From: Planctomycetota bacterium
GTDB taxonomy: Bacteria > Planctomycetota > PLA2 > JAEUHO01
Direction of reading: 5' to 3'
Assembly (NCBI GenBank): GCA_965223505.1
Contig: CBDCWP010000044.1
Span: forward strand, 32,001-96,000
Length of the DNA: 64,000 nt
Shown here: piece by piece, positions 28,042 to 46,110 of the stretch
Layout of the letters: every line of letters starts with the position of its first letter
How positions within the stretch are numbered: position 1 is the first letter of the stretch
Made by a program: the position numbers and the translations under genes
The notes under the pieces: generated by a model
What the model saw: only the letters and a program-made list of their open reading frames with translations
What the model was told of the DNA's origin: nothing
Databases searched by the model: none

Positions 28042-28433
28042 TGCGGCGGGTGGTGGCGACGGAGGGCGCGCCCGCCGCGATCGGTCCGTACAGCCAGGCG
28101 ATCGTCTACGGCGGCATTGTGTACACCGCGGGGCAGATCGCGCTGGACCCCGACGACCTCTCGGGCCCGCTCGTCGGCGCCGGCGACGTCGCCGCCGAGA
28201 CCGAGCAGGTCCTGCAGAACCTGACGAAGGTGCTCCATGCGGCGGGTACGGGCATGGGAAGCGTCCTGCGCTGCGACGTGTTCCTCGCGGACATGGGCGA
28301 CTTCGACGCGATGAACGCCGTGTACGCCCGACACATGCCCGAGGACCCGCCGGCGCGAACGACGGTGCAGGCGGCGGGGCTCCCCCGGGGTGCGCGCGTG
28401 GAGATCGCCGCAATCGCCGCGGTCCCGCAATGA
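28038..28433 (+). CDS. ridA: RidA/YjgF family enamine/imine deaminase
   Basis: APAAIGPYSQA, GQI, PPARTTV..LPRGARVEI. Confidence 0.9.
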
Positions 28434-28473
28434 CCTTCATCCGGTCTTTGGGGGGCCGCGCTAGACTCGGAAC

Positions 28474-29211: not shown

Positions 29212-29292
29212 CGGGCGTGGCGTCGCGCGCAACCGATCTGTTCACGGCGCGCGCAACCCTCGGGCCCGCCCCTACGGGGTGCCGCCGAATTG

Positions 29293-29325
29293 AAAAGGGC
29301 CCGGCGGTCTGCGACCGCCGGGCCC
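29293..29325 (-). terminator. Intrinsic terminator of secretin paralog 1
   Basis: 13-bp perfect stem GGGCCCGGCGGTC/GACCGCCGGGCCC, with AAAA on + (U-tract on -). Confidence 0.8.
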
Positions 29326-29344
29326 CGTGATTGTCCAGGCCGGT

Positions 29345-32212
29345 CTACCGACCCATCAGGCGCTCTTCCTGCTCGCTCAGGTCCGTGATGTGCGCGCGGA
29401 CGAGGATCATCAAGTGCGAGATCTCGTCGCTGCGGCCCTTGCGGCTGAACAGGAAGCTCAGCAGCGGAAGCTTGCCCAGGAAGGGCGACTCGCTCTGCCG
29501 GTCCACCGTCGTGATGTTCTTCAGACCACCGATCAGGATCGAGCCGCGGTCCGGGATGCGAACCGTGGTGCGAGCCTGCTGCAAGCGCAACTCGGGCAGC
29601 TGGATGATGACCGGCGCGAACGACGAAGCCAGCGTCGTGGCGAACGTCGGGATCGGCTCGATCAGGTCCGCAACCGTCGGCTGCAGTTCCAGCGTGATGT
29701 AGCGGCGGTCGTTGGAGACCGTCGGGCGCACGTCCAGCGTCAGGCCGTCCTGGATGATGCCGACGATCGGGTCCGCGATGAACGAGGTCTGCGCGACCTC
29801 GACGTCGAAGTCCTGGATGTACGACAGCTGGTTGACGACCGTGAGGTTCGCGCGCTGCGTGTTGTAGACGGTGATCGTCGGAGCGGTCAGCGTCCGCGCC
29901 TTGGCGCTCTTCTCGGTCGCCCGGACGACCATCGAGAACTCGGTGTCGTCGAGGTAGCTCAGCGTGAGCGTCGTGCCACCGACCGACGAGAGCACGTTGC
30001 CGAGCGGACGGTCGAAGATGCCCTCCGTGCGGCCGCGGAAGTCGCCGTCGGCGCCGTCGCCGAAGTAGACACCGGCCGACGGGTTCAGGGCGGCGCCCGT
30101 CGTCAGACCACCACCGTTGTTGTCACGGCCGGCCGACGAGTTGTCCTCGAGGCCGTTCGTCACGTCGTCGAGGTTGACGAGCTGACCCGGCGTCTGGTTG
30201 CCCAGGCCGCGGAAGTCGACGCCCACGTCGCGCAGGAAGTTGTCGCCGACCTCGAGGAAGCGGGTCTCGACCGTCACGACGATGCCGGCGAAACCGCGCA
30301 GGTCGTTCAGGAACTGGTCGACCTTCTCCTGCACCTCGGGGGTGGCCTTCACGACGAGCGCGTGATCGCCCTGGCCGCTGACCTCACCCTCGGAGTTCTC
30401 CCAGAACGCGGGATCGACCGCGCCCTTGATGAGCTCGATGAGCTCGTCGATCTGCCCGTAGGGGTAGATGGGCTCTTCACCCTCGGCGCCGAACAGCGGG
30501 TTCTCTTCGTCCGACACGTCGTCGGGGCTCACCAGCTGGATCTTCGGCGGGATGAAGTCCGTGAGACCGCTCGTCAGGTCGGCGACCGAGTGGATCTGCA
30601 CGACGAGGTTCTTCGCCAGCAGGTCCTTGCGCGTGAACTTGATCACGTTGCCCTGCGTCGTCCAGACGATCTCGTCGCCGGCGTACGCCTGCAGCAGGTT
30701 CAAGACGGTTCCCATCGCCACGTCCTGCATGTGCAGGCCCTGGACCGGGTTCTCGTTGATGTCCGCGGCGACGCGGTTGTCGATCATGATGTTGTAGCCG
30801 GTCTGGATCTGAAGGGTCTGCACGACCTGCTGGAACTCCTGGTTGTCCACCGAGATGTTCACCGAGGTGCCGTTGACCTTCTTCTTCAGCGCGGCGGCTT
30901 CCGCATCGACCTCGAAGTTCCCGAACTGCGGGCGGGTGCGCTTGCGGATTTCCGTGATGTCGTCCCAGAACTTCTGCGACGGCCAGACGAGGATCTTGTC
31001 CTGCGGGACGCGCGTGTTCGTGATGTCGTTCATCCACTCGCGGAACCGCAGCTTCTCCTCGCGGAGATAGTCGTTCTCGTACTGCGCGTGCGACGCGCGG
31101 TTCGAAGCGAGCTGGAGGTCCTTGGCCTTCGTGTTGTCAGGCTGCTCGTTGAGGACGAGACCGGCGTAGTAGCCGGCCTTCTCGAAGTCGTCGCGGCCGA
31201 AGGCCTCGACGCCGGCGCCCATCCAGCTCTCCAGACGACGCATCTGCGCCATCAGCTGCTCTTCCTCGGCCATCGCCTGGTCCTGCAGGCTGCCTTCGAT
31301 GGCGCGGCGGCGGGCGGCCGCCTCCTCCGCTTCCTTGAGCGACTGCGCGTTGCGCAGGCCGTTGGAGGTCTCCTGCTCGAGCTCGCCCCAGTCGATGTCG
31401 TAGGGCGAAGCCGTCATGATGAACAGCGACTGCTCGAAGTTCTCGATCGCGTCGTCGAAGCGACCGTTGGCCAGGTGCATGCGGCCGAGGTTGCTGAGCT
31501 GCGCGGCCTTGGTCTTCTGCTCGTCGATGCGCACCTTGGCGATCATGGCCTGCTGGTCGGCGTAGCCGAGCGCGCTGCTGCGGCGGCGACCCAAGAGGTC
31601 CTCGACGATGCGCAGCTCGTGGACGACGTCACGGTTGCCGGGCTGGAGCTTGCGCGCCTCGAGCAAGAGCTTCTCGGCCTTCGCGTACTCGTAGTTGTCG
31701 ACGTGGACGCGGGCGGCCTCGAGCTTCTGGCGAACGAGGAAGCGCGCGCGATCCTGCTCGACCGCGTTGCGGCGGCTGATCTCGTCGGCGAACCCCTCCG
31801 CATCCGGACCGGCGGGCGCGGCCGGCTCTTCGGCCGTCGGCTCGGCGGGCGCCGGCTCGGCAGGCACCGGCTCTTCTTCCGGCGCCGGTGCGGCCGGTTC
31901 CTCTTCCGGCATGGCGGCCGGCTCTTCGGCGACGGCCGGCGTCTCACCGGCGGGACCGTCGACGACGCGCGAGCTCACCACGTCGCCGGGCTTGTCGGCG
32001 TCGCTCGGGCCGGGGCCCGCGGCGGGCATCTCGGCCGGCGCCTCGGCGACGGGCGCATCCGCCGGCGTATCGGCGGCGGGCGCATCGGCGACGACGACCG
32101 GTCCGCTAGCGGGACTGTCGGCGACGATCACGCGGCGGCCGCGGCAGGCGCCGACGACGAGCACGAGGACCAGAAGGATTGCAATCGGTGCGAGTCGGAT
32201 GTTGCGGAACAT
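29345..32212 (-). CDS. Secretin-family lipoprotein with TPR-like region (paralog 1)
   Basis: Lipobox-like VGAC; P/A/E-rich linker; TPR-like helices; N3-like LVVKATPEVQEKV; VETRFLEV; APTITVYNTQRA; TTVRIPDRGSILIGG; PFLGKLPLLSFLF. Confidence 0.85.
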   Translation of the reverse strand: MFRNIRLAPIAILLVLVLVVGACRGRRVIVADSPASGPVVVADAPAADTPADAPVAEAPAEMPAAGPGPSDADKPGDVVSSRVVDGPAGETPAVAEEPAAMPEEEPAAPAPEEEPVPAEPAPAEPTAEEPAAPAGPDAEGFADEISRRNAVEQDRARFLVRQKLEAARVHVDNYEYAKAEKLLLEARKLQPGNRDVVHELRIVEDLLGRRRSSALGYADQQAMIAKVRIDEQKTKAAQLSNLGRMHLANGRFDDAIENFEQSLFIMTASPYDIDWGELEQETSNGLRNAQSLKEAEEAAARRRAIEGSLQDQAMAEEEQLMAQMRRLESWMGAGVEAFGRDDFEKAGYYAGLVLNEQPDNTKAKDLQLASNRASHAQYENDYLREEKLRFREWMNDITNTRVPQDKILVWPSQKFWDDITEIRKRTRPQFGNFEVDAEAAALKKKVNGTSVNISVDNQEFQQVVQTLQIQTGYNIMIDNRVAADINENPVQGLHMQDVAMGTVLNLLQAYAGDEIVWTTQGNVIKFTRKDLLAKNLVVQIHSVADLTSGLTDFIPPKIQLVSPDDVSDEENPLFGAEGEEPIYPYGQIDELIELIKGAVDPAFWENSEGEVSGQGDHALVVKATPEVQEKVDQFLNDLRGFAGIVVTVETRFLEVGDNFLRDVGVDFRGLGNQTPGQLVNLDDVTNGLEDNSSAGRDNNGGGLTTGAALNPSAGVYFGDGADGDFRGRTEGIFDRPLGNVLSSVGGTTLTLSYLDDTEFSMVVRATEKSAKARTLTAPTITVYNTQRANLTVVNQLSYIQDFDVEVAQTSFIADPIVGIIQDGLTLDVRPTVSNDRRYITLELQPTVADLIEPIPTFATTLASSFAPVIIQLPELRLQQARTTVRIPDRGSILIGGLKNITTVDRQSESPFLGKLPLLSFLFSRKGRSDEISHLMILVRAHITDLSEQEERLMGR

Positions 32213-32421
32213 GGATCTGTTCAGCTCCTCTCGGTGCCGTTCGAAAACAGCGACAAACGATGCGAGAGATTGAGCAGAGACCCTCTCTCTGCCCTGCCTG
32301 ACCGAGCCGCTTCCGCGAACGGAACCGACTCCGCCTCCCTACGACGCGATAGAACAATCGAGGGTGGTCACGCCCGTGTCATAAACCGTGACAGGAAAAC
32401 GGATTCCGGCGCGTGGGCGGG

Positions 32422-34224
32422 CTAGCGGCAGACGCGGTTGTAACGGTTCTGTTGGCGGGTCGTCGTGCACAGTTTTCGCGCCGCGTCGCACGCCGCCTCC
32501 GCGGCCTCCGATTGTCCCAATTTCTGTAGAATTTTGGCCTTTAGGAGCCACATCTGACAGGTCCAGTGGGGCAACTGCTTGCCCGCCGTCTCGAGGCGCT
32601 CGAGCATCGCGGCGTCGCGACCGAGCGCGTTCACGCCGCACCAGGCAACCAACGTCCGCGACGTCTTGCGGCCGAGCTCCCACGCGCGTCCGAAGGCCTG
32701 CTCGGCCTGCGCGGCCAGATGGGGGCGGTCGAAGCCCGCGAGGGTCCGACGCGCCTCGCCCAGGCGAAAGTGCGCCTCCGGGTTGGTCGGGTCGCCGTTG
32801 GTCGTGATCCGTTCGGCGGCCCGGACGAGGTCGCTCAGCGCCTGGGTGTCCCCCCGCATCTGGGCGGCGCGCACGTCCAGGGCGAGCTGGTTCAGGACGC
32901 TCACCAGCCCGATCTTCTCGTGCGGGTCGGGGCGGCGCGCGTTCTCCGGGCCGGGCAGGAACGGCTCCACGATGGCGGAGCCGCCGTAGTACTGGGGCGC
33001 GCTCCCGCCGCGGTCGTCCACCCGCACCTCCAGTTCCTTGTATTCAACAAGGATCTGGTTCAGCCTCGCCAGGTTCTGCGCCGCTTTGGCGGGCTGCAGC
33101 ACGGGCTCCGTGCGCCAGGCCGCGCGCTCGAGCCAGTACGCGCGTCCCTCGCCGACGTCGATGAGGGTGCCGGACGGCGAGACGGCCGCGGCGAGCTGGG
33201 CCCAGCCGTAGCGGTTGTGGCCGTACAGGGACTCGGCCACCCGGGCCCGGTCCGGCGGCTGGGTCCCCGCCATCACGTCCCGGCCCATGCCCGGCCCCTC
33301 GACGGCGGGCCAGGGCACGCCGCACAGGCCCGCCAGCGTCGGGGCGACGTCGGCGATGTCGGCGGGATCCGAGCGTACGCCGGCCGGGATGCCGGGGCCG
33401 GCGAGCAGGAACGGGACGCGCAGCGTGGCATCGCCGAGCAGGATGCCGTGACTGGCCTCGCCGAGGTTGCCCAGGCCCTCGCCGTGGTCGGCCGTGAGCA
33501 GGATCAAGGCATCGCCGCGGCCTGCGGCGCGCAGGCCCTTGCGCAGGCGGCCGAAGATGGCGTCGGCGGCCTTGACGTCGTCGACGTAGCGTCCGGTCGT
33601 GTACGGCGCATGGGGCTCGAAGATGTGCACGAAGAGGAACAGCGGCTGCTCCGTGCCGGCCTCCCGGGCGTACCGAACCGCGGCGTCGACGGTGTCGGCG
33701 CCCGGCCGCTCCGCGACGTTCAGGGCGTCCGTGTCGCCGAGATCGCCGTCGTCGTAGCGGTCGAAGCCCTGGTCGAGCCCGAATCCGGCGGCCAGGACAC
33801 CGGCGGAGACGAACGCGCCCGTCCGCCAGCCCGCGGCCTGGAGCCGCTCCGCCAGCAACGGGAAGCCGCGCGTGTCCGGCGGGCGCAGACGGCCGAAGGT
33901 GTTCAGCCGTACGCCGGTGGCAGCCGGCGGTCGCCCGGTCAGCATGGTGGTGTGTCCGGGGAGCGTGAGCGGCACCGGGGAGCGGGCGTCGTCGAAGCGC
34001 AGGCCCGACTCGGCCCAGGCGTCGATGTTGGGGGTGCGTACCGGCGGACGCTCGCCGTCGGGCGTGTAGACGGAGACGTGATCGCGCCGCAGCGTGTCGA
34101 TCGCGAAGAGCACGATCGTGCGCGACGCGCCGCGGTTCAGCTCGGTCGCGCGCCAAGGCTGCCAGATGGCCAGGCCGATGGCGGCCAGGACGGCAATCGA
34201 GAGACCCCACATCCGATGCGACAT
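32422..34224 (-). CDS. Sulfatase-like (alkaline phosphatase superfamily) hydrolase with C-terminal TPR-like region
   Basis: IDTLRRDH, PLTLPGHTTMLTG, GLDQGFD, HIFEPHAPY, TADHGE. Confidence 0.85.
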   Translation of the reverse strand: MSHRMWGLSIAVLAAIGLAIWQPWRATELNRGASRTIVLFAIDTLRRDHVSVYTPDGERPPVRTPNIDAWAESGLRFDDARSPVPLTLPGHTTMLTGRPPAATGVRLNTFGRLRPPDTRGFPLLAERLQAAGWRTGAFVSAGVLAAGFGLDQGFDRYDDGDLGDTDALNVAERPGADTVDAAVRYAREAGTEQPLFLFVHIFEPHAPYTTGRYVDDVKAADAIFGRLRKGLRAAGRGDALILLTADHGEGLGNLGEASHGILLGDATLRVPFLLAGPGIPAGVRSDPADIADVAPTLAGLCGVPWPAVEGPGMGRDVMAGTQPPDRARVAESLYGHNRYGWAQLAAAVSPSGTLIDVGEGRAYWLERAAWRTEPVLQPAKAAQNLARLNQILVEYKELEVRVDDRGGSAPQYYGGSAIVEPFLPGPENARRPDPHEKIGLVSVLNQLALDVRAAQMRGDTQALSDLVRAAERITTNGDPTNPEAHFRLGEARRTLAGFDRPHLAAQAEQAFGRAWELGRKTSRTLVAWCGVNALGRDAAMLERLETAGKQLPHWTCQMWLLKAKILQKLGQSEAAEAACDAARKLCTTTRQQNRYNRVCR

Positions 34225-34353
34225 GGGGGGACTGTATCAGGGGTGCGGGTGCGCGCATCGGACCCGCACCCCGTCACCGATGCCGCCCCCGCGCCGGATC
34301 CCGGCGCCCGGATCGGTATCGGGTTGGGAGACCCGACCGGTCGGGTTCGGACG

Positions 34354-34968
34354 CTACGGCGCGACGCGGTTCTTCAGCGGCGACTGGGTGCCTTCGAAGT
34401 GCACCTTGCTCAAGCCGGCGGCGACGAACGTGTCCAGCACGCGGATCACGTCGCCGTGCGGCACGCTCATGCCGTACGGCGGCGGCGCCACGATCTCGGC
34501 GCGCGTTTCGGGATCGCGGTCGACGAACGCCCACTTGGCCTCGATCACGCGCTGAATCCGTTCCATGACCTCGTCGTACGCGGCAATCCGCGACGCCTCG
34601 TTGCTCTTGTCGATGCTCCACTCGCCGGCCGGCAAGCGGTACGTGTGACTGCCGTCGATCTTCACGAGCGTGTACGCCTCTGCGGGATTCTCGCGGTTCT
34701 TGCGGAACAGCTTGATCTTGATCCGCGGCGCCGTGTCCTCGATGAGTTTGGGAATGTCGGTCGGCCCGCGGTCCTTGGGCATGCTGGCGTCGATGCGTTG
34801 GTCGACGGTTTTGAACTTCAGGCTGAGCAGGAAGAAGATGATGAGCTGAAACACGATGTCGATCATCGGTGTCATGTTCATCTCGGTGTCGTCCCCGGTG
34901 GCCCAGACGGTGGGTCTGCGCCCACTGCCGTCACTCGGGGGAGACCCTGCGTTGGAAGAGTCTGTCAT
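34354..34968 (-). CDS. ExbD/TolR family protein (third copy)
   Basis: AGGAG RBS; MNMTPMIDIVFQLIIFFLL. Confidence 0.85.
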   Translation of the reverse strand: MTDSSNAGSPPSDGSGRRPTVWATGDDTEMNMTPMIDIVFQLIIFFLLSLKFKTVDQRIDASMPKDRGPTDIPKLIEDTAPRIKIKLFRKNRENPAEAYTLVKIDGSHTYRLPAGEWSIDKSNEASRIAAYDEVMERIQRVIEAKWAFVDRDPETRAEIVAPPPYGMSVPHGDVIRVLDTFVAAGLSKVHFEGTQSPLKNRVAP

Positions 34969-35277
34969 TTGTCCGCTCCTGGTGAAGGTGCGGACGGCCG
35001 AACACGGATGTGTCGGCGAACGGGGGTCTGCCGACAGCTTACCTTGGTAGGCGAACGCGACAACAGGGAGAAAGTCGTTCGGGCTTGGGCGACGCGCGCT
35101 GCTCACTCGCATACGGGAAGCGGGAGCGAGGCCGGGACCGGGAGCGGCGTCAACGGCCGTCGATGAGTGCGCGGAGCGACCGCCGTGCGCCGAGGGCTCC
35201 GCTCGACACTCCCGCTAGCCGTTTGCAGAACGGAAGCTGGGCGTCACGCAATGTCGCGTTGGATCGACGACCAACGG

Positions 35278-35859
35278 CTACTTCTGCAGTCCTTGCCCGG
35301 TCATGGTGCCGCCTTCGCTGCTGCGCAGCGGCGGAGCCGCACCCTCGAAGACGACCTGCTGGATGCCGATGTCCACCAGCATGTCCAGCACGCGCACGAT
35401 GTCGCCGTGCGGAACCGCGCCGCCGTCCGGCGGCATCGCGGCGATCTCGCCCTTCACTTCGGGGCTGCGCTGCTGCGCCGCGAACTTCGCGTCGACGACC
35501 TGCTTGATCTGCCCGAACAGGTTGTCGTACAGCGCGAGCCGCGCTTCCGAACCCTTTGCATCCTTCGGCCACGGGCCCTTCGGCAGGTTGAACGTGTGGG
35601 TGTTGTCGATGCGGATCTTCGTGTACGCCTCGAGCTCCTTGCCCTTCTCCTTGCGGAAGAGCTTCACCTTGATCTTCTCGAATTCCGGCGGGAAGGAGGG
35701 CGTGGGGGCCAGGCCGCGGTCCTTCGGCAGCTGGCTGTCGATGCGTCGGTCCACCTCTTTGAACTTCAGGCTGAGCAGGAAGAAGATGATGAGCTGGAAC
35801 ACGATGTCGATCATCGGCGTCATGTTCATTTCGGTGTCGTCGCCTTGCGCGATGTCCAT
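35278..35859 (-). CDS. ExbD/TolR family protein (second copy)
   Basis: AGGAG RBS; MNMTPMIDIVFQLIIFFLL; VPHGDIVRVLD. Confidence 0.88.
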   Translation of the reverse strand: MDIAQGDDTEMNMTPMIDIVFQLIIFFLLSLKFKEVDRRIDSQLPKDRGLAPTPSFPPEFEKIKVKLFRKEKGKELEAYTKIRIDNTHTFNLPKGPWPKDAKGSEARLALYDNLFGQIKQVVDAKFAAQQRSPEVKGEIAAMPPDGGAVPHGDIVRVLDMLVDIGIQQVVFEGAAPPLRSSEGGTMTGQGLQK

Positions 35860-35868
35860 GATCGACTC

Positions 35869-36381
35869 CTACTTGTCCGTTTCCTTGACCGGCTGCTTCA
35901 CGGCGAACTGCATCTTGTAGATCTTGATCTTCTGGTCCGCACAGACCTGCATGATCCACTGCACGTACTGCCACTTCGCGGCGCGGTCACCGTGGATCAG
36001 GACCGGAATCATGCTCGACGAGTCCGGCTCGCTGAACTTCGGGTCCGCCGTGAGCGCCATGAGCTCTTGACGCAGCGCCCGAAGCGCCATTTCCTGCGCC
36101 ATCGGATCGGCCGACGACAGGCTCCACGAGTTGCCCTTGAACGTGACGGTGCCGTTCGACTCGAGGTTGATGACGAACCGCGGCGTCTTGTCCGTCGGAT
36201 CCTCTTCGTCCTCGATGCCCTTGTACGCGTGCGGAAGATCGACCGGCACGAACTCCTTGGTCGTGAGGTCGATCGTCAGCATGAAGAACACGACCAACAG
36301 GAAGGTCATGTCGATCATCGGCGTGAGGTTCATGTTGGCTTCGTCGGAATCGACGACAGCCTTGCTCCGCTTACCAGCCAT
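35869..36381 (-). CDS. ExbD/TolR family protein (first copy)
   Basis: MNLTPMIDMTFLLVVFFML; VDLP; VLIHGDR. Confidence 0.9.
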   Translation of the reverse strand: MAGKRSKAVVDSDEANMNLTPMIDMTFLLVVFFMLTIDLTTKEFVPVDLPHAYKGIEDEEDPTDKTPRFVINLESNGTVTFKGNSWSLSSADPMAQEMALRALRQELMALTADPKFSEPDSSSMIPVLIHGDRAAKWQYVQWIMQVCADQKIKIYKMQFAVKQPVKETDK

Positions 36382-36439
36382 TGCGCCTCCTCGGATTCAC
36401 CGGGTCGGACTTCTTGTTCATCGAGCTGCCAGCGGGCGA

Positions 36440-37132
36440 CTAGCGGCTGCGGAATCGCTCCGTCATATCCTCGAGGATACCGGCGAAGTCGATCGAGATG
36501 CGCGTGGCCTTGTTCCGGAAGTACTGGTACGCGCTCACCGCGGGAATCGCGACGAGCAGACCCAGGAAGGTCGTGACCAGCGCGGCCGAGATCCCACCGG
36601 CGAGGTCCTTCGGCGTCACCTTCGCGCCGAGCGCGACGATGGCTTTGAAGGCCCCGATCATGCCGTACACCGTTCCGAACAGGCCGAGCATCGGCGCGAC
36701 GTTCGAAAGGAACAGCATCCAGCTCACCTTCTGCTGAAGCTTGACGGCCTCGATGCCGGCGGCGGCCTCGATGGCCTCCTTGACCTTCGGGTAGCCCTCG
36801 TTCAGGCGCGGAAGGCCGGCGGCCAATGAGTTCGTCAGGAAGTTCGGCTCCGACTCACAAAGCTCGAGCGCCTCCTGGTACTCATCTTCTTCCAGCAACG
36901 CTTCGAGCTCGTCGATGAGCTCGGGCGGGCAGATCTTGTCGCGCCGCACGTTGACCGAGAACTCGATGACGAGCGCCAACGTCGCGATGGACAGGAAGAT
37001 GATGACCCAACCGATGGCGCCACCCTTGGTCACGACGTCGGAAAGGATCGAGTCGGCGTGTGCGGACGCGGGGAACACGACGGCCGTGAGAACGAAGAGG
37101 GCAGTCAACACTGCGAAGGTCGTCTTGGACAT
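36440..37132 (-). CDS. MotA/TolQ/ExbB proton channel protein
   Basis: Signal-like N-terminus; APMLGLFGTVYGMI; LAGGISAALVTTFLGLLVAIP. Confidence 0.92.
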   Translation of the reverse strand: MSKTTFAVLTALFVLTAVVFPASAHADSILSDVVTKGGAIGWVIIFLSIATLALVIEFSVNVRRDKICPPELIDELEALLEEDEYQEALELCESEPNFLTNSLAAGLPRLNEGYPKVKEAIEAAAGIEAVKLQQKVSWMLFLSNVAPMLGLFGTVYGMIGAFKAIVALGAKVTPKDLAGGISAALVTTFLGLLVAIPAVSAYQYFRNKATRISIDFAGILEDMTERFRSR

Positions 37133-37359
37133 GGCTCCAAAGCACTCCAAATGGGGGCCCCGAGGGGTTCTCGGGGCGGGCGTACGGGCGTCGAAGGGTA
37201 CCTCCCACGCTTGTTTCTTGCTACTCCGTACCAAGCGCTGGGCGCCGGGTCCGTCGCAGCTTCACGAGGTTGCGCCCTTTTCGGGCCTCCGTCGGGGCGG
37301 CCGCCTCGCGCGATCGGTTGTCGGGTCTCCTGAATCGACCGGGAATGGTGTGGGCCGCG

Positions 37360-38763
37360 CTACTTCCGCGCCCACTCCGTGTCTGAGTAGTTGGACTTGA
37401 GCGCCTTGCGCGCCTGGTCCCGCATCTTCTCGTACATCTCCTTCGCGGCGGGCTTCTTGGCGGACTCGGCCGCCTTCGACGCCGCTTCGGCGAGGTAGTA
37501 GTGGGCCAGCGCCGCCTGGTCCCGGACGCCGAAGTTCTTGACACGCACCGTGTCGAAATGGACCAGCGCCTCGACGGCCTTGCCTTCGTGCAGGTACGCC
37601 AACCCCAGGCCGTTCGAGGCGACCGCCTGCACCTCCGGGTCGCGCGCGCCGCTCACGATCGCGTCGGTCACCGCCTTGGACTGCCCGGCGAACTTCGACT
37701 TCAACGCGTCCGGCATGCCGGCCTCGATGAAGACCCGCAGCCGGTTGTAGGTCGCCGCGTTGTCCGCCTCGAGCGCCTGATCGAGCTTGACCTTCGCTGC
37801 GCGAATCCGCGCCCGACTGTAGTACCGACCGAGCTCGAGCTGGAGGCACTTGCGCATCTCGTTCTTGAGGAGCTGGCTTACGATCGTCAGCGCAGACTGG
37901 TACGCCTTCGACGCGTCCTCCGCGTTGCCCTTTGCTTCCTCGATGATGCCGCCGCCCAGCGCCGCTTCGTACGCCCAGCGAGGCGAGAGCCCGAGCGTGG
38001 CGTCGATCGCGTGACCCTGGAGCTCGTCGAAGACCTTCTTCGCCTCCGGGTACTTGCCGAGCCCCACGAGCGTCTTCGCATGCAGGAGCATCGCCTCGGG
38101 ATACCAGCGGCTGTTGCCGTTGGCGAACCGCGTGAGGAAGCCGCCGGTCGTCTTGAACTCGTCGTCCTCGGCGACCTGGTCCGGCCGCGGCATGTCCACC
38201 AACGCCATCAGGGCCTGCCCGAGGATGTCCTTGTTCTTCTCCTTCATGCCGCGCAGGTACAGCGCCTTGCAATAGAAGAAGTGTGCGTACTCACTCTGCC
38301 AACGGGGGCGCTGGTTGCCCTTCGTCGGGTCGCCGGCCATGAAGCTCTTGTACTTGGGCTCCTCGCCGAGCGTGTCCCAACCGCCGCCGTGGACCGTGAA
38401 CAAGGCCTCTGCGGCTTCCTGATAGCTCCCGCGCCGGATGAGGTCCCGCGCCGACTTGATCGTCTCGGCCTCCGCGTCGTTCACGTCGCCGCGCCGCACG
38501 GACGCGACCTCGATCGTGGGGATCTTCTGCTCGGGGCCCTTCGCGCGCTCGCGGTACATCACGAACTGCCAGGTCTCCGACGTGACCTCGTAGACGGTGC
38601 GCGTCGATCGCTCGCACGTCCGGAGATCGATGACCTCGATCTCGTCCGCGGCGGCCTGCGTCGCAAAGGAGAGTCCCAGGACGAAGAGTCCCAGGAGTGC
38701 CAAGCCTCGAATGGATGCGTGCATGGGTGCGGTCCTCTTGATTGCGTCGTTCATGGCGGCCAC
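37360..38763 (-). CDS. Exported TPR-like protein
   Basis: Signal peptide ending AAA-DE; repeated Ala-rich helical hairpins; C-terminal YSDTEWA. Start uncertain (38763/38754/38724). Confidence 0.7.
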   Translation of the reverse strand: MAAMNDAIKRTAPMHASIRGLALLGLFVLGLSFATQAAADEIEVIDLRTCERSTRTVYEVTSETWQFVMYRERAKGPEQKIPTIEVASVRRGDVNDAEAETIKSARDLIRRGSYQEAAEALFTVHGGGWDTLGEEPKYKSFMAGDPTKGNQRPRWQSEYAHFFYCKALYLRGMKEKNKDILGQALMALVDMPRPDQVAEDDEFKTTGGFLTRFANGNSRWYPEAMLLHAKTLVGLGKYPEAKKVFDELQGHAIDATLGLSPRWAYEAALGGGIIEEAKGNAEDASKAYQSALTIVSQLLKNEMRKCLQLELGRYYSRARIRAAKVKLDQALEADNAATYNRLRVFIEAGMPDALKSKFAGQSKAVTDAIVSGARDPEVQAVASNGLGLAYLHEGKAVEALVHFDTVRVKNFGVRDQAALAHYYLAEAASKAAESAKKPAAKEMYEKMRDQARKALKSNYSDTEWARK

Positions 38764-41700
38764 TACTCGTCCCCGTCCCCGTTGGGCTTCGGCTTCTCGG
38801 GTTGCTCGTCGTTCTCTGCGTCCGCGGCCATGTCCTTGGGCATCTTGCGCAGGTCCAACACGAGCTTCGGCTGGATCATGTCGTTGAGCCGCTTCAGTGC
38901 GGTTTCGAGGTCCGCGATGGTCCCCGGCCGCTCCGATTCGCCGAGCCGCGGATAGCGCGACTTGAGGCCGCGCAAGATCTTGCCCGCGTACTCGAGCATC
39001 GTCTTGGCATCCGCCTTGGCGGCGCCGGGGCTCGCACCGCGCGCCCGCTCGGCGGCGTTCAGCATGGCGTTGAGCCGGATGACCTGCGTTTCCCAGAACT
39101 CCTCGGAGTCGTCGTCGACCTGCATGAGCCCGCGCAGCAGCGTGCCGCAGAGGTTGATGGCTTTCACGTCGTCGCCCTCACGGCCCGACTCGGCGTAGGA
39201 CTGCGCAAGCGCCATGCGGAACGAGCGACGGTAGTCGCCGTGGATCCGGTAGAAGACGGCGTCGAAGCCGGCGTTCTTGAACGCCGCCACCGTGCGCTTC
39301 AGCGTCTGGTCGTCTTCCTTCGCCATCTCGCTCTTGAAGCGGCCGAGCGCCTCCTTGTAGGTGCGGTCGGCGCGGGCGCTTTCGAACTTCGGGATGGGCG
39401 TGCCGCCGGGACTCCCGAGCTCCTTGACCGCTTTGCGGAAGCCGGCGACGTCCGACACGCGCGGCATCGGAAAGCGGAAGGAGCGCTTCTCGATCGGGTC
39501 GGTCCACGGCAGGACCACGAAGTCGCCCGCGAGCATGCCGACCAGGAGGTCGTTGTTCTCCGGAATGTTCGCGACCGCGCCTTGCAGCAGCTCGACGGCC
39601 TTCAGATTGAGCTCGCGCGCCGTCTTCTCGTCTTGCGCCGTGCTGGCGAGGTGCGAGTAGATCTTGCCGAGCTTGCCGAGCGCCTTCGAGCGGTCCTCGG
39701 CGGTGATGCCGGGCAGCTTCAGGTAGGCCTCGTTGAGCTCCTTCGCGCGCTCCCAGTTCTCGCGAACCTCGGGCTTGAGCTCCGTCGCGTAGAAGTACAT
39801 GTACGCGAACTTGTACAGATGCGACGGCGTCAGGGACTCCTTCAGCGCGACCATCGTCTTGTACCAGAGATAGTACTTCTCCGCGGCCTTCACCAGGTGC
39901 GGGTACATCTCCAGCTTGTACGCGTCGATCTTCTTGCGCTCTTCGATGAGCTCAGCTTCGAGCGTTTCGCGTTTCGCCGTCAGCTCGCGCAGCTCCTTGT
40001 TCAGCCGCGCGATCGTCTTGATGATGCCGTCGCGGATGAGCTGCTCGTTTGGGTTCTTCTCGTCCTTGAAGTCCGGGCGGCCCTTGAGGTCCTTCTCGGC
40101 CTCGTCGCGCTCCGTCTTGCCGATCTTGGTATCACCGCCGCTCGCCATGGCGCGGTCGTACGTGTCGATCAGCTCCTGCTTCTTGCGGCGTGAGCCGTTG
40201 AGGTCGACGAGACGCTCCGCGACGCGGTTCTCGTCCTTCTCCGCGACCTTGAGCCGGTAGAGCAGGCCCTTGGCGCGTTCGTCTGGCGGACCCTGGATCT
40301 TGGCCAGCGAGGCCTTGAGGTTGGTTTCGATCTCCGAGTACTTGCTCTCGAAGTAGCGGGCCAGCCCGAACGTGATCTTGTGCAGCTTGTTGTAGGTCGG
40401 GTACTTGGCCACGAGCTTGTCGAGGTACTTCTCGGCGTTCTCGATGTCGCCCTTGCCGACGTAGGCCTGCACCTGGTTCCCCAGCGCGCCCGACAGATAC
40501 GGAAGGGGATCGAGGTCGCTGTGTTCGGCGGCGAACGTCTTCAGGAGATCGAGCACCGCGTCCCACTGCTCGAGCTCGACCAACGCGAGGCTCTTCCAGT
40601 AGATGGTTTGGCCGCGCGCCTTGCGTGCACGCTTCGCCCAGTCCGACTCGCTCTGCTTGAACTTCGCCTGCGCGACCGGACCGTCCCAGTACTTCAGGGC
40701 GGCGTCGGACTCCTTGATCATCCCGCGCCAATCCTTGCGGGCGAGCGCGCAGCGAATGATGTAGACGAACGCTTCGTTCTGCAGGCGCGCTTCGGGGTCC
40801 TTCGCAACGCGCCGGAATCCGGACTCCGCCTTCGACAGCGTCGACTTCCAGCCGCTCTTGCCCTCGTTGCGCTCCTTGATCGCCTGCTTGCGGTTGGCGA
40901 TCGCGGCCTGGATCTCGCTTTCCTGCTCGGACGGATGGCCGCGATAGTCGCTCGGGAACGAGTCCTGCACGGCTTTGAAGCGATCGAGATAGATCTTGGC
41001 GTCCGTCTGCACGTAGAGCTGGTCGAGCAGGCCCATCGCCTGTCGTCGAAGGTTGCCCGCCATGACGAGGTTCTCGTCGTTCTCGTCGTTCGTCGTGCGC
41101 GGAATGCGCCCGTCGATCCACGCCTCGTGGATCGGCTCCAGCGCCAGGCTCGCCGACAACAGGTCCCCGAGGTTCTTGTAGCAGATGGCGATCTTGCGCC
41201 ACGACGGGACGCCGAACTTCATCAGGTCGTCCGTGCTGTCGGTCATGGCGACGATCACGCGCTGGTAGGCGCCGATCGCGTCCGTGTAGCGCCCCTTCGA
41301 AAACTGGCTGTCCGCCACGCCCATCAGGACCTCCGCCGACTGGCCGCTGCCGCCGTTGGTGGTCCCGCCGCGCGTCACGAATTTCTCGAGCAGATCGTTG
41401 GCCTTCTTCTCGAGGTAGCCCTTGCCCTTCTCGCTCGCGATGCTGGCGGCCTGGCTGGCGATCTTGATCGCCTCGTTGGTCCGATCCTGGGCGTCCTCGA
41501 GCCGCGCCCACTGCAGGAGCGCGTGGATGCCGTCGTCCGTGTCACCGATCGTCGGGTGCCGCACCATCATCTTCTTGAGGTACGTGCTCCCGGTGCGCAG
41601 GAAGTTCTCCCCACCGACGCGGCCGGCGCTCAGGCAGAGCTGGCCGATGTGGTTGTAGCCGCGCGCGATGATGCGCAGCGTGTCCCCGTCCACGTGCTGG

Positions 41701-42563
41701 GTCTCGACCGTGGTGTCGAACCACTGCAGCGACTGGCGGTACCAGCTGAGTTGATCTTCCTCGCGCTGGGCGCACTTCGCGAGCTCCCAAAGCGCCTGTC
41801 CGTAGATGTCGGATGCGTACGCCGCGACGGTCTCGCCGTCGAAGAACCCGATGAACTCGTCCAGGTCGTTGTTGACCGACTTCAGCGCGTTCTCCGCCTG
41901 CGCGCTGCACGGATCGTGCACGAGCGCCGCGTAGAACTTGCAGACCACGAAGTAGTACTGCGCGATCTGCTGCATCGCGGTCGCCTTCTCGTCGTCCCAG
42001 CCGCGGCGCAGGGTGTCGAAGTAGCTGATGGCGCCCTCGACCATGTCGCGCGCGTCCGCTTGCACCTGCGTCGCGTTCGTTCCGCGCTCCTCCATCATCT
42101 CGGGCTCGCTCATGAGCCGGCTCTGCGCCCACTGGACGAACTCGAGGCGCGTCGTTCCGATCAGGTTCTTCGCCTCGTTGACGCGCGGGTGATCGGCGTT
42201 CTTGCGAACGAACGTCTCCATGTCCTCGACCGCGCTCTTGAAGAGCTTCACGACCTGCTCGTACGGAACGTCCGGGTTCGCGCGGGCGGCGATCGCGGCG
42301 TTGCGCGTGAGATCCGCGAGGCCGTACTTGGCGAGGTCCTTCTCGGACTCGCTGCGGTTCCGGTCGTCGAGCATGCGCTGGTAGACCTTGCGCGCGAGGT
42401 CGAACCACGACGAGTCGGCGGTCTGACGGCCCTTGGCGGCCAGCTGTTGGCCGAACTCGAAGTCGTCACTGCCCGCGCAGGCGGACGGCGTGCCGAAGGC
42501 GAGCAAGAGGAGAGAGAGGAATACCGTGGGGAGAACCAGACGTCGTACGCGACGAGTCAACAT
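38763..42563 (-). CDS. Very large exported TPR-like/coiled-coil protein (1266 aa)
   Basis: Signal peptide; TPR-like units (LMGVADSQFSKGRYTDAIGAYQRV; AEKYLDKLVAKYPT); long coiled-coil-like segment. Confidence 0.75.
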   Translation of the reverse strand: MLTRRVRRLVLPTVFLSLLLLAFGTPSACAGSDDFEFGQQLAAKGRQTADSSWFDLARKVYQRMLDDRNRSESEKDLAKYGLADLTRNAAIAARANPDVPYEQVVKLFKSAVEDMETFVRKNADHPRVNEAKNLIGTTRLEFVQWAQSRLMSEPEMMEERGTNATQVQADARDMVEGAISYFDTLRRGWDDEKATAMQQIAQYYFVVCKFYAALVHDPCSAQAENALKSVNNDLDEFIGFFDGETVAAYASDIYGQALWELAKCAQREEDQLSWYRQSLQWFDTTVETQHVDGDTLRIIARGYNHIGQLCLSAGRVGGENFLRTGSTYLKKMMVRHPTIGDTDDGIHALLQWARLEDAQDRTNEAIKIASQAASIASEKGKGYLEKKANDLLEKFVTRGGTTNGGSGQSAEVLMGVADSQFSKGRYTDAIGAYQRVIVAMTDSTDDLMKFGVPSWRKIAICYKNLGDLLSASLALEPIHEAWIDGRIPRTTNDENDENLVMAGNLRRQAMGLLDQLYVQTDAKIYLDRFKAVQDSFPSDYRGHPSEQESEIQAAIANRKQAIKERNEGKSGWKSTLSKAESGFRRVAKDPEARLQNEAFVYIIRCALARKDWRGMIKESDAALKYWDGPVAQAKFKQSESDWAKRARKARGQTIYWKSLALVELEQWDAVLDLLKTFAAEHSDLDPLPYLSGALGNQVQAYVGKGDIENAEKYLDKLVAKYPTYNKLHKITFGLARYFESKYSEIETNLKASLAKIQGPPDERAKGLLYRLKVAEKDENRVAERLVDLNGSRRKKQELIDTYDRAMASGGDTKIGKTERDEAEKDLKGRPDFKDEKNPNEQLIRDGIIKTIARLNKELRELTAKRETLEAELIEERKKIDAYKLEMYPHLVKAAEKYYLWYKTMVALKESLTPSHLYKFAYMYFYATELKPEVRENWERAKELNEAYLKLPGITAEDRSKALGKLGKIYSHLASTAQDEKTARELNLKAVELLQGAVANIPENNDLLVGMLAGDFVVLPWTDPIEKRSFRFPMPRVSDVAGFRKAVKELGSPGGTPIPKFESARADRTYKEALGRFKSEMAKEDDQTLKRTVAAFKNAGFDAVFYRIHGDYRRSFRMALAQSYAESGREGDDVKAINLCGTLLRGLMQVDDDSEEFWETQVIRLNAMLNAAERARGASPGAAKADAKTMLEYAGKILRGLKSRYPRLGESERPGTIADLETALKRLNDMIQPKLVLDLRKMPKDMAADAENDEQPEKPKPNGDGDE

Positions 42564-42981
42564 GAGAACGCTTCCTTCTCGGGTCGGTCGAATCCAGGAG
42601 CGGATCGGGACGGGGAATGTGTCCGACGGGGCGGCGGGTTCTGGGGTCCCGGCGCTTGCCCTACTGCGTTGCCCACCAGAGCGCGCGAAATAGGGGATGC
42701 GAGCAGCCCACCCGGATTCCCAGGGCGCGGATTCTACGGGTGCCCTCGTAGGGGGTCAATCGGACCCGGAACGTTCGTTCCCGGGTTGCCGAAGACCGCG
42801 TGAGGTCGCGCAGTCCGCGCATGGTGAATCGATGGACGGTTGCCCGGTACCAGAAGGGCGAGAGAAGCCGGCGGGAGCGGGTCGGCGCGGCAAGAGCCAC
42901 CATAGCGCAATCGGAAGGCGGTGCAACGGACAAAAGTCGCGCGCTGAGGGGGGCGCCCGATCGAATCGGGATGGGGACGTT

Positions 42982-43048
42982 GTAGCGACCCTCGTGGTCG
43001 CCCAATCCGTCGCCTGCCCCGCTGGGCAGCCACGAGGGCTGCCCCGAC
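42982..43048. repeat. Degenerate REP pair
   Basis: GTAGCGACCCTCGTGGTCGCCC 42982-43003 and GGGCAGCCACGAGGGCTGCCCCGAC 43024-43048. Confidence 0.85.
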
Positions 43049-43074
43049 GCCGACGCATCTTCGGCAACGAATGG

Positions 43075-43105
43075 AAAAGGGGCCGCGCTGAGCGAGCGCG
43101 GCCCC
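43075..43105 (-). terminator. Intrinsic terminator of secretin paralog 2
   Basis: 11-bp stem GGGGCCGCGCT/AGCGCGGCCCC, with AAAA on + (U-tract on -). Confidence 0.8.
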
Positions 43106-43134
43106 TCTCGGGATGTCCGTGATGTCCGGAAGGA

Positions 43135-45900
43135 CTAGCGGCGGAACCAGCGGCGCGGGTTGCCGACGCCCGGAAGGCCCTTGTCCTCGGGGCCCGTGCT
43201 GTCCGGACAGCCGCACGAGGGCGGAGCCTCGTCGGCCGGCCGCACCGGCGTCCAGCGGTTGGACGGGATCTCCGGCACGTTCAGGTTGTCCTTCGGCTCC
43301 AGCTCCTCCAGGTTCACGATCTCGGCCGTGATGAGGACGAGCAGGTTGCGGCGGTTCACGTAGTTGCCCTTGCGGGACAGCAGGAACGAGAGCACCGGCA
43401 GCTTCGAAAGGAAGGGCGTGCCGCTCTCGAGCGTCTCCTGCTCGTAGAACTTGAGACCGCCGAGCAGCAGCGTGCCGCCGTCGGGCATGTTGACCGTCGT
43501 GCGGACGCGGCTGACGCGCAACTCCGGAATCTGGATGACGACCGGGGCCGACGCCGTGACCGGACCCGAGGCGAGCGACGTGCTGAACGTCGCGATCGGG
43601 CGGGTCAGGACGGCCACCGTCGGGCGCAGCTCCAGGTTCACGAAGCGGCGGTCCGCGGAGACCACCGGGCGGACGTCGAGGACGATGCCGTCGAGGATCG
43701 TCTGGACGACCGGGTTCGCGATGTTGGACGCCTGCGCGATCTCGACCTCGTAGTCAGCCACGTAGGCGACCTGGTTGAGCACCTGCACGTTCGCGCGCTG
43801 CGTGTTGTAGACCGTGACGCGCGGGGCGGTGATCTGCTGGATGCGCTCGCTCTTCTCGACCGCGCGCAGGATCACCTCGATCTGGGTGTCGTCCAGGAAG
43901 GTGTGCTGGAAGGAAAGGCCGCCGGAGCCCGTGAGGACCTCGGGGTTGCCGAGCAGCACGTCGAACAGGTTCTCGACGCGAGCCGAGTAGGCGCCGTCTT
44001 GACCGTCGTTGTAGAAGATACCGGCGTCGTTGGCCGTACCGACCGAGGACGGCTCCGGGTTCACGCCGAACGGCACGCCGAACGGGTTGCCGGGCGACCC
44101 GAAGAAGACGTCGTCCTGGACGACCGCCGTACCGAGACCCGGCACGCCGATGCCCTGCGAGTTGTCGCCCAAGCCGCGCACGTCGACACCGACGTCGCGC
44201 AGGAAGTTGTCCTCGGCCGTCAGGAAGCGGACTTCCAGGTTCACCAGGATGCCCGTGTTCGCGCGGAGCTCCTCGAGAAGGTTGCCGATCTGGTTCAGGA
44301 TCGGCTTCGTGTTGCGCACGATCAGGATGCCGTTGCGCGCCTCGATGTTCGCCGGGTCGTCCCAGGCGCCTTCACCACCGATGGTCTCGCGGATCAGGTC
44401 CGGGAGGTTCTCGGCCGGGAAGATCGGAAGCGGATCCGGGAGCTCCGGCGGCTCCGGCGGCGTGAAGTTCGAGGGCGTCAGGTTGATCTCCTGGCCGACG
44501 AAGTTCTGAATCGCGACGTTGAGATCCTTCACGTCGAAGTAGCGCAGCTTCATGGTGCCGCTGATCTCGTCCTTGGTGGCGATCTTGATGACGCCGCCCT
44601 CGGCGATCCACTTGAGCTCGTAGTCCTCGGTGATGAGGTCCAGCACCGTGGAGACGCTGACGTCGTCGAGCTTGAGCGTGATCTGGACGTCCTCGCCCTT
44701 CTCCTCACGCGCCTTGGCGGTGATGAAGAAGTTGAGGCCGGTCAGGGTGCGCAGCAGGGCGACGGCGTCGTCCAGCGACGCGTCTTCCCAGTTCAGGCCC
44801 TGAATGCGCTGGTTCTCGATGACCGAGAGGATGCCGCCGAGCGACGCGTCCTCTGCCGCGTCGTCCGCGTCGCCGACCGCGCGGGGCTGGCGATGGGCGA
44901 TCTCCTCGAGCCAATCCTCGGGGAACTCGACCGTGCGGACCTGCGGCAGCGCGTCGTTCTCGACCTGCTGCATGATGCGCTTCCACTGGTCGTCGAAGCG
45001 ACGGCGCGCACTGATGTCCTCTTGCATGTGCTGCGCGTCGTAGCTGATCGTCATCAGACGCTCGGCATCGTCGTTCGTCGGGTCTTCGCGCAGGATCTGC
45101 CTCGCGTACTCGCGGGCCAGCTCGTAGTTGCCCTGGCGGAACGCCACGTTGGCTTCCTGGAAGTACGCGTGCATGCGGCCGAGACGACGCTCGCGCTCTG
45201 CGTTCAGCGCGTTCTCCTGCTCGATCTGCGCCTCGCGGATCTGCTCTTCGTGCGCGCTCCGCTCGGCGAGCTCCGACTTGTAGTTCGTGCGGTCGATGAG
45301 ATCGCGAATGCGCTCCGCGCTCATGCCGAAGTCCGCCGTCTCGTCGTACCAGGAGATGATGGCCAACGCCTTGCGGTACTCCTTGACCGCGCCGGCGTAG
45401 TTCTCCTGGCCTTCGAGCGTGCGACCGCGGTCGAGGTAGTTGCGAACCTCGGCGGCCGCCTGCTGGCGACGGACGTCTTCGACGCTCTTGCGCTCGCTCA
45501 TGTACGCGGCCGTCGTGCTGGGACGGTCGGACATGAGGTTCTCGAGCCCGTCGCGCGCTTCGATGTTGCTCGCGTCGAGGTCGAGTGCCTTCGCGAAGAG
45601 ATCCTTCGCCGTGTCGTAGTCGCCCTTGCTGACCGCGTCGTTGGCGCGATCGATGAAGTTCTTGATCAGGAACTTCTGACGGTCGGCTTCGACGGCGGCG
45701 GCGGCGGACTTCTCGTCGAGGTACTCGACGGCTTCCGGTGTCGCGGAGACGTCTCCGCCTTCGCCTTCCGCTTCCGCGACCACGACCGCGGTGTCGTCCG
45801 GCGAGCCGTCGCTCTTGGCGACGATGCGACGACGGCCTTGGCAGGCAGTCAGAGCGACGATCAAGACAGCTACAAAAAGGACGTGAACGGTGCGCTGCAT
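43135..45900 (-). CDS. Secretin-family lipoprotein with TPR-like region (paralog 2)
   Basis: Lipobox LTAC; TPR-like helices; LIVRNT; VNLEVRFL; APRVTVYNTQRA; TTVNMPDGGTLLLGG; PFLSKLPVLSFL. Confidence 0.85.
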   Translation of the reverse strand: MQRTVHVLFVAVLIVALTACQGRRRIVAKSDGSPDDTAVVVAEAEGEGGDVSATPEAVEYLDEKSAAAAVEADRQKFLIKNFIDRANDAVSKGDYDTAKDLFAKALDLDASNIEARDGLENLMSDRPSTTAAYMSERKSVEDVRRQQAAAEVRNYLDRGRTLEGQENYAGAVKEYRKALAIISWYDETADFGMSAERIRDLIDRTNYKSELAERSAHEEQIREAQIEQENALNAERERRLGRMHAYFQEANVAFRQGNYELAREYARQILREDPTNDDAERLMTISYDAQHMQEDISARRRFDDQWKRIMQQVENDALPQVRTVEFPEDWLEEIAHRQPRAVGDADDAAEDASLGGILSVIENQRIQGLNWEDASLDDAVALLRTLTGLNFFITAKAREEKGEDVQITLKLDDVSVSTVLDLITEDYELKWIAEGGVIKIATKDEISGTMKLRYFDVKDLNVAIQNFVGQEINLTPSNFTPPEPPELPDPLPIFPAENLPDLIRETIGGEGAWDDPANIEARNGILIVRNTKPILNQIGNLLEELRANTGILVNLEVRFLTAEDNFLRDVGVDVRGLGDNSQGIGVPGLGTAVVQDDVFFGSPGNPFGVPFGVNPEPSSVGTANDAGIFYNDGQDGAYSARVENLFDVLLGNPEVLTGSGGLSFQHTFLDDTQIEVILRAVEKSERIQQITAPRVTVYNTQRANVQVLNQVAYVADYEVEIAQASNIANPVVQTILDGIVLDVRPVVSADRRFVNLELRPTVAVLTRPIATFSTSLASGPVTASAPVVIQIPELRVSRVRTTVNMPDGGTLLLGGLKFYEQETLESGTPFLSKLPVLSFLLSRKGNYVNRRNLLVLITAEIVNLEELEPKDNLNVPEIPSNRWTPVRPADEAPPSCGCPDSTGPEDKGLPGVGNPRRWFRR

Positions 45901-46110
45901 CCGGTGGCCATCCCTTCCCGTTTACGTAAGTCTGGTGCGTTCTCGACGGCCGGAAAGCCCGCCCGAAAGAACATCCCTCCCTTGGGACGCGCATTTGGTA
46001 GGCGGGACCTGTCACGCCACCGTCACATTGCGTGCGCGTAAACCGCGAATACGTCGGTAGCTGCGTCGACTGAGCGCCGAGCGGGGTCACCGGAACGTAG
46101 GATTCCGTTC

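Follow-up and report, generated by a model that had tools for sequence, protein, structure and literature searches.

Two secretin paralogs flanking an ExbB/ExbD motor and large TPR proteins in Planctomycetota: a conserved gene block and candidate proton-driven envelope machine

Wherever secretins have been characterised, be it in type II or type III secretion, in type IV pili or in phage export, they work together with ATPases of the cytoplasm, and the established outputs of ExbB/TolQ-type stators are Ton, Tol, gliding and type 9 secretion. Does a gene block that holds both kinds of component encode a single machine, or two systems lying side by side? The question arises at positions 29345-45900 of a 64,000-nt stretch of DNA from a Planctomycetota bacterium (PLA2; JAEUHO01; assembly GCA_965223505.1, contig CBDCWP010000044.1, positions 32,001-96,000 of the forward strand), hereafter the window, which has a G+C content of ~68%. 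The block consists of nine genes, all on the minus strand, in the order SecA > TPR1266 > TPR467 > ExbB > ExbD1 > ExbD2 > ExbD3 > Sulf600 > SecB, where SecA and SecB denote the two secretins, TPR1266 and TPR467 two TPR-like proteins and Sulf600 a sulfatase-family hydrolase. An earlier note, drawn from the letters alone (the original prediction), had described nine co-oriented genes of these kinds and proposed a secretin machine energised by the proton motive force (PMF). That inventory holds: strand, coordinates and the Pfam and NCBIfam identities all agree with it.

We tentatively read the nine genes as one conserved envelope module, in which a stator is linked via exported solenoids to lipoprotein secretins, and place this reading a little short of an even chance. 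Gene content, conserved linkage and a non-standard Ton/Tol motor speak for a PMF-energised secretin machine, whereas the coupling of proton flux to the pore stays a proposal; we regard motor-secretin coupling as plausible.

Conservation of the gene block

Related loci were obtained by scanning genomes, one for each species, with a TPR467 alignment, which gave 46 pattern-matching stretches; 16 of these encode a relative (L001-L016), and all 16 are from metagenome-assembled genomes (MAGs) of Planctomycetota, Planctomycetia or Planctomycetales. The DNA in view comprised the 64 kb of the source genome and at most 21 kb per related genome. Gene order was read from tblastn and open reading frame (ORF) mapping, and each junction was counted over the loci that cover it. 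Every informative locus showed the same order, namely SecA, TPR1266, TPR467, ExbB, ExbD1, one or more type-2 ExbDs, the hydrolase and SecB. The junctions SecA>TPR1266 (9/9 loci), TPR1266>TPR467 (15/15), TPR467>ExbB (13/13), ExbB>ExbD1 (12/12), ExbD>hydrolase (10/10) and hydrolase>SecB (9/9) were all kept, and the entire block is held by seven loci as well as the window. The original prediction had named a lack of conserved linkage as its own refutation; the linkage is conserved, with order kept at every junction covered in the 16 loci.

On one side the block is bordered by genes for uracil-DNA glycosylase (UDG), a methyltransferase and an IS110 transposase, and on the other by a HAD hydrolase and an Opp-type ABC transporter. 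Among the loci, UDG, methyltransferase and HAD change orientation, and in L001 a pirin gene, not HAD, follows SecB. Since gene order is constant while the flanks invert or change identity, the block is steadier than its surroundings.

None of TonB, TolA, TolB, Pal/OmpA, TonB-dependent receptors, pilins and GspE/PilB-type ATPases was matched by the nine block proteins or by the 30 other ORFs of the window that were scanned. The absence of TonB/TolA, receptor, TolB/Pal, pilin and secretion ATPase, originally claimed for the locus, extends across the whole 64 kb, and the extra ORFs of the 16 loci include no TonB, TolA, pilus or secretion genes. In a literature search that did not cover subscription journals, we found no paper in which secretin genes of Planctomycetes were described as clustered with ExbBD or TolQR.

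The motor, the solenoids, the secretins and the hydrolase

The ExbB/TolQ-like proton channel is encoded at 36440-37234 by a 264-aa ORF (MotA_ExbB, E 1.5e-26) whose likely start is Met35, giving ~230 aa. Its nearest solved relatives were TolQ (E 3.8e-13) and, at a weaker score, ExbB (E 2.8e-7), and against NCBIfam it reached 81.9 bits for tolQ (cut-off 221) and 45 bits for ExbB (cut-off 206). Three ExbD genes follow: ExbD1 (35869-36381, 170 aa; Pfam ExbD, E 5.9e-17), ExbD2 (35278-35859, 193 aa; E 2.9e-10) and ExbD3 (34354-35112, a 252-aa ORF; E 1.4e-12), the last with a likely start at Met48 that gives ~205 aa. The NCBIfam tolR score was 42.9 bits, where the cut-off is 127. Because neither the window nor the 16 loci encode a TonB or TolA partner, and because ExbB falls far below the cut-offs for both ExbB and TolQ, the motor is no ordinary Ton or Tol set.

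The ExbDs of the window and the loci fall into two types, type 1 of ~170 aa (ExbD1) and type 2 of ~193 aa (ExbD2 and its second copy, ExbD3), the latter extended in its periplasmic part and ending in a conserved tail. There are two to five ExbDs per locus: type 1 is single, except for two copies in L001, and type 2 is present in one to four copies. The transmembrane Asp is kept in every copy but one. The copy without the membrane Asp motif lies at L001 9085-9726 and is degenerate. Copy number varies via tandem duplication, mostly of type 2.

TPR1266 (38763-42563, 1266 aa) has weak Pfam TPR matches, an ordinary signal peptide and a mature N-terminus with a conserved DDFEF motif. Its AlphaFold2 model, built from a 15-row alignment (mean pLDDT 86.9), is an all-helical solenoid with very long coiled helices in the centre (~727-906). 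A Foldseek search with this model returned just generic eukaryotic TPR scaffolds (template modelling (TM) score <=0.28), and SprE appeared only as a low-TM match at rank 31 (TM 0.17-0.28). A weak NCBIfam match to the Tol-Pal TPR protein YbgF was also seen. The profile search matched 305 of 1.84 billion representatives at E<=1e-3 and 79 at E<=1e-30. About 25 of these are full-length, and a second tier of 950-1080 aa matches the N-terminal ~730 positions only. One second-tier protein, P0303 (22% identity to TPR1266, E 9e-27), and a secretin with 41% identity, P0272, each have just one contig listed, and its length is 11,390 bp in both cases; from this shared length it is probable that the two genes lie together on one short contig, the sole hint of linkage beyond the clade. 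A profile search started from the second-tier proteins was dominated by generic TPR proteins, with 4 of 46 matches belonging to the TPR1266 family, and the ESM Atlas gave generic planctomycete TPR clusters only, a lead at most.

TPR467 (37360-38763, 467-aa ORF) carries a signal peptide and weak Pfam TPR matches. Its true start is likely Met14, giving 454 aa (37360-38724), since the database copy is 454 aa. The family has 32 matches, and the profile had no match in the PDB. Some ExbBD-TonB-TPR operons carry accessory TPR proteins.

SecA (43135-45900, 921 aa; Pfam Secretin PF00263, E 1.5e-25; TPR_2, E 1.6e-13) and SecB (29345-32212, 955 aa; Pfam Secretin, E 5.1e-25) scored 90.2 and 88.5 bits against a Pfam gathering cut-off of 27.5. 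The N-termini read as lipoprotein signals, with the lipobox Cys at position 20 in SecA and 23 in SecB. In the SecA model (AlphaFold2, 47-row alignment, mean pLDDT 72.3), a disordered linker is followed by a helical/TPR region (~55-317), an N0-like domain (365-456), an N-domain (496-548) and the secretin barrel (552-862), the Pfam match itself covering residues 680-862. SecB has a Pro/Ala/Glu-rich linker, a TPR domain and then the secretin domain (765-943). The two align over 847 columns at 33% identity (E 3e-125), are alike from the TPR region to the C-terminus and are thus full-length paralogs. Both are predicted outer-membrane lipoproteins whose TPR N-domains may be pilotin-like. Because orthologs of each secretin are 56-68% identical, compared with 33% between the paralogs, both orthogroups appear old and retained.

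Assignment to a known secretin type is less direct. The best NCBIfam match of SecA was the Amuc_1098 type IV pilus family (113.8 bits, cut-off 750), followed by MshL (89, cut-off 250), PilQ (84.5, cut-off 284) and GspD (65, cut-off 351), and SecB was also below every NCBIfam secretin equivalog cut-off. Judged by the Pfam and NCBIfam cut-offs, both proteins are members of the Secretin family but not equivalogs of PilQ, GspD, MshL or Amuc_1098. With Foldseek, the SecA model best matched BfpB, Vibrio cholerae PilQ, InvG and GspD (E 4e-21 to 1e-15). The secretin family profile gave 511 matches; among the best 120 of the 511, which are those listed, all 12 of the source names that carry an organism are Planctomycetota or Planctomycetes. 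A further feature of these proteins is a Cys-x-Gly-Arg-Arg-x-(Ile/Val)-(Val/Ala) motif that begins at the lipidated Cys (SecA 20-28, SecB 23-31). Of the 47 aligned secretins, the 13 nearest carry this motif, and the sequence behind it is disordered and not conserved; the motif could serve as a signal for lipoprotein sorting or, like a TonB box, for docking onto a strand.

Sulf600 (32422-34224) is a predicted periplasmic hydrolase of the alkaline phosphatase superfamily, with a single N-terminal transmembrane helix and a C-terminal helical, Cys-rich domain. The original label of sulfatase-like stands at the family level (Sulfatase PF00884, E 1.1e-27) and not at that of the catalytic signature. 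In an alignment with choline sulfatase, Thr-Leu-Pro-(Gly/Ala/Ser)-His occupies the Cys/Ser-x-Pro-x-Arg nucleophile site, and this Thr and His, in place of Cys and Arg, are invariant in 10/10 orthologs, beside conserved metal-site motifs. By its nucleophile signature, then, Sulf600 would not be a formylglycine (S1) sulfatase, though the Pfam Sulfatase domain is present. We take Thr-x-Pro-x-His to be the pattern of nucleotide pyrophosphatase/phosphodiesterase-type enzymes, for which the support here is a Pfam Phosphodiest match (E 1.2e-9). As a separate observation, the hydrolase of L012 (14043-15901) and the SecB of L007 (15439-18634) are each split into two overlapping ORFs, and a frameshift, a pseudogene or an error of MAG assembly could lie behind either case.

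The surroundings of the block were also inventoried. The IS110-family transposase gene (47612-48727, plus strand) is ~1.7 kb from SecA, past UDG and the methyltransferase. Two Opp-like peptide ABC transporter gene sets lie at 11638-16795 and 22061-28041 (plus strand); L006, L007, L010 and L016 likewise have the second set's ATPase conserved close to the block. A second giant TPR protein (1421 aa, 52748-57013, plus strand) shows no relation to TPR1266 (E 1.2); the genes after it encode an FHA-GAF sigma-54 activator (57759-59819, plus) and a double-FHA protein (60085-62712, plus). Two large ORFs, at 18217-21468 (plus, 1083 aa) and 1056-3245 (plus, 729 aa), have coding-like composition and no Pfam match. 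A known defence system was ruled out, as PADLOC matched 0/9 block proteins.

Transcription signals and alternative readings

Each secretin was originally said to have its own terminator, so that the block is not a single operon, and the signals found bear this out. Downstream of the SecA stop codon is a terminator-like hairpin (43078-43106) with a 12-bp perfect GC-rich stem, a 5-nt loop and a T-rich run, and downstream of SecB is an intrinsic-terminator-like hairpin of 14 bp, 12 of them G-C (29296-29326); both are on the minus strand, as are an internal promoter and a conserved element.

The putative sigma-70-type promoter (TTGACC, 17 nt, TAGAAT; 42731-42759) is located ~170 nt upstream of TPR1266, in a gap between SecA and TPR1266 where no conserved hidden ORF was found. 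The pattern TTGAC-N16-20-TANAAT has a single occurrence in each of 11 of the 16 loci, in every case directly upstream of the TPR1266 ortholog (L001 374-402; L002 5896-5924; L003 243-271; L004 70-98; L006 5795-5823; L007 5947-5975; L008 3834-3862; L010 375-403; L011 1220-1248; L012 6012-6040; L016 3593-3621). It is missing in L009, L013 and L015 although the region is present, and the region lies outside the remaining two loci. When the copies were aligned, the hexamers stood out against diverged flanks; the rows had been picked by the pattern, and independent evidence comes from the extra conserved letters only. This promoter is AT-rich in genomes of 66-72% G+C.

The gap between Sulf600 and SecB holds a conserved non-coding element (32330-32411) with a direct repeat, ATGAC-N6-(A/G)TGACC (32366-32382), and then a conserved GGGAGG, ~100 nt before SecB. 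The element is present in 9/9 aligned rows. Its ATGAC repeat is exact upstream of SecB in seven loci (L001, L002, L006, L010, L012, L015 and L016), has one mismatch in the window and was not found before SecA or TPR1266. Neither a hairpin nor an Rfam match was found in this gap, and an Rfam scan of 28000-48000 gave no match. A regulator might bind this element, or it might act as a promoter of an unusual kind.

If the nine genes do encode one module, it could work as follows. ExbB and a pair of type-1 and type-2 ExbDs would form a heteromeric proton-driven stator, as in AglRQS, and stator movement would pass to the periplasmic solenoids, with TPR1266 as a pillar and TPR467 as an accessory. The solenoids may then engage the secretins at their periplasmic TPR/N0 domains, so that the pore is gated or held. 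The whole would be a force chain of the Tol or Agl-Glt type with a secretin at its end where those systems have Pal or GltABH, while the hydrolase might process phosphoester-bearing cargo or an envelope polymer in the periplasm. A complex prediction with SecA residues 21-460, the TPR1266 N-domain and the ExbD2 periplasmic domain gave a score of 0.00 and a mark of 0.32, without controls, and weighs neither way.

Several observations weigh against such a module. No TonB-, TolA- or GltG-like transducer is encoded in the block. Because of the SecA terminator, the conserved promoter of TPR1266 and the conserved upstream element and terminator of SecB, the block seems to be divided into three units, each with its own signals: SecA, the TPR-motor genes and SecB. 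The secretin family (511 matches) is far larger than the TPR families (305 representatives and 32 matches), and many such secretins may thus work without this motor. A TPR N-domain joined to a secretin is the build of the type IV pilus PilQ of Akkermansia, where the available part of the source reads the TPR as pilotin-like (PMC4960237), and this is a precedent for a lipoprotein-TPR-secretin in a type IV pilus. Finally, all 16 loci are from one planctomycete clade, in which neighbours with no relation to the block (UDG, methyltransferase, HAD and the Opp ATPase) are conserved as well, and some of the synteny thus reflects no more than common descent.

In the main rival, the block contains two systems side by side: self-piloting secretins of the Planctomycetes-Verrucomicrobia-Chlamydiae (PVC) type, serving type IV pili or type II secretion encoded elsewhere, and a separate Tol-like system for envelope maintenance or division, with adjacency inherited rather than functional. 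The ranking of SecA against Amuc_1098 and then MshL, PilQ and GspD, its fold being nearest to BfpB and PilQ, and the Akkermansia PilQ of the same TPR-plus-secretin build (read as pilotin-like in the available part of PMC4960237) all favour a pilus or secretion role; yet the equivalog scores are far under the cut-offs (e.g., 113.8 against 750), and no pilus or secretion genes lie within 64 kb. The Tol-like half would explain why the ExbB gene product is nearer to TolQ than to ExbB and why TPR1266 weakly matches YbgF, but no TolA, TolB or Pal is found beside the motor. Inherited adjacency would fit the SecA terminator, the separate upstream elements of SecB and TPR1266 and the unrelated flanking genes conserved across the same loci. 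It does not fit as well with the paralogous secretins, which stay at both ends of the block in 9/9 covering loci per junction while the flanks invert. We consider two adjacent systems a serious possibility, if somewhat doubtful.

A more specific form of the single module, in which the secretin machine runs on proton flow and not on ATP and serves macromolecule uptake ('selfish' polymer import, which Planctomycetes carry out even though TonB and receptors are missing from most of them), we consider unlikely as it stands. Here the stator would pull or open the pore via TPR pillars across a wide periplasm, the Thr-nucleophile hydrolase would trim the cargo, and the machine would be a novel type of system for uptake or secretion and a candidate part of the crateriform structures.

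The block could also encode a planctomycete relative of the Agl-Glt/Nfs core complex, in which a surface structure is moved or remodelled by the motor and TPR proteins, for gliding or to deposit a coat or polymer, and the secretins do no more than export the polymer or adhesin. Component count and sizes agree with AglR, AglQ, AglS, GltD and GltE as given in the available parts of PMC3169522 and PMC11761067, both TPR proteins have signal peptides, as do GltD and GltE, and the available part of PMC3169522 reports the core complex in non-gliding bacteria, with function unknown there. However, the block encodes no TonB-like GltG/GltJ protein, no GltC and no GltA/B/H barrels; the likeness to GltD and GltE is one of size, signal peptide and helical TPR build only; and Planctomycetes have 0 occurrences in the main text of PMC3169522. 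We therefore hold this reading to be improbable. An ordinary Ton system, with TonB encoded elsewhere, TonB-dependent receptors energised, accessory TPR proteins and unrelated secretins, would account for the Pfam MotA_ExbB and ExbD families, but is very improbable given that TonB and receptors were not found in the 64 kb or the 16 loci, that the ExbB gene product reaches 45 of the 206 bits required by NCBIfam for ExbB and scores higher for TolQ, and that, in the available part of PMC3422733, TonB and receptors were present in only four of the planctomycete genomes analysed.

Comparison with known systems

A stator joined to a secretin, which is the core of the single-module reading, would if true be a new output for proton-driven 5:2 motors and a new way of powering a secretin. 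Polysaccharide import by Planctomycetes is stated to have an unknown mechanism in the available part of PMC11131199, and most of the genomes analysed in that of PMC3422733 are without TonB; because import is unexplained and TonB is mostly absent, the conserved motor-scaffold-pore block is a concrete candidate to test for this question. A paper on planctomycete cell biology (PMC5394234) mentions neither TonB, secretins nor ExbB. Even if two systems are present, three features stand: two ExbD types with copy-number variation, a small family of 1200-aa periplasmic solenoids and a 'sulfatase' that is not one by signature.

Of the Ton system, the ExbB and ExbD domains are present here, and TonB and receptors were found in neither the window nor the loci. 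Type 9 secretion (GldLM motor, SprA translocon, SprE TPR lipoprotein) and TonB-dependent secretion via Oar are precedents for PMF-powered export across the outer membrane. Type 9 secretion also has a periplasmic TPR lipoprotein at its translocon, but these systems use another motor family (GldLM) and another outer-membrane pore. The Amuc_1098 PilQ resembles SecA in its ~900 aa, N-terminal TPR and C-terminal secretin domain. It differs in that SecA reaches 113.8 of the 750 bits required and that here two paralogs flank a motor with no pilus gene in 64 kb, whereas Amuc_1098 presumably sits in a pilus-like gene cluster.

Tol-Pal is closer in its motor, as ExbB and ExbD1 best match TolQ and TolR, and it likewise combines a proton-driven stator, an outer-membrane lipoprotein and a periplasmic TPR protein (CpoB/YbgF). 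Unlike Tol-Pal, the block has no TolA, TolB or Pal, does not reach the equivalog cut-offs, has extra ExbD paralogs and giant TPR proteins, and has secretins as its outer-membrane lipoproteins.

By this comparison, the Agl-Glt core complex comes closest among known designs. According to the available parts of PMC3169522 and PMC11761067, the core complex consists of AglR, AglQ, AglS, GltD, GltE, GltG and GltC and is clustered in several phyla. The block departs from it in having a secretin pair in place of the GltA/B/H barrels, no TonB-like GltG/GltJ and no separate GltC, and an extra alkaline-phosphatase-superfamily hydrolase. In both, however, the genes are clustered, one TolQ-like channel is accompanied by two distinct TolR/ExbD-like subunits, exported TPR proteins of ~1200 aa and ~470 aa are present (alike, here, in size, signal peptide and helical build), and there is an outer-membrane end module. 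The sizes of ExbB, ExbD1, ExbD2, TPR1266 and TPR467 (264, 170, 193, 1266 and 467 aa) may be set beside those of AglR, AglQ and AglS (245, 162 and 194 aa; PMC3169522, available part) and of the exported TPR proteins GltD and GltE (~1200 and ~460-480 aa; PMC11761067, available part).

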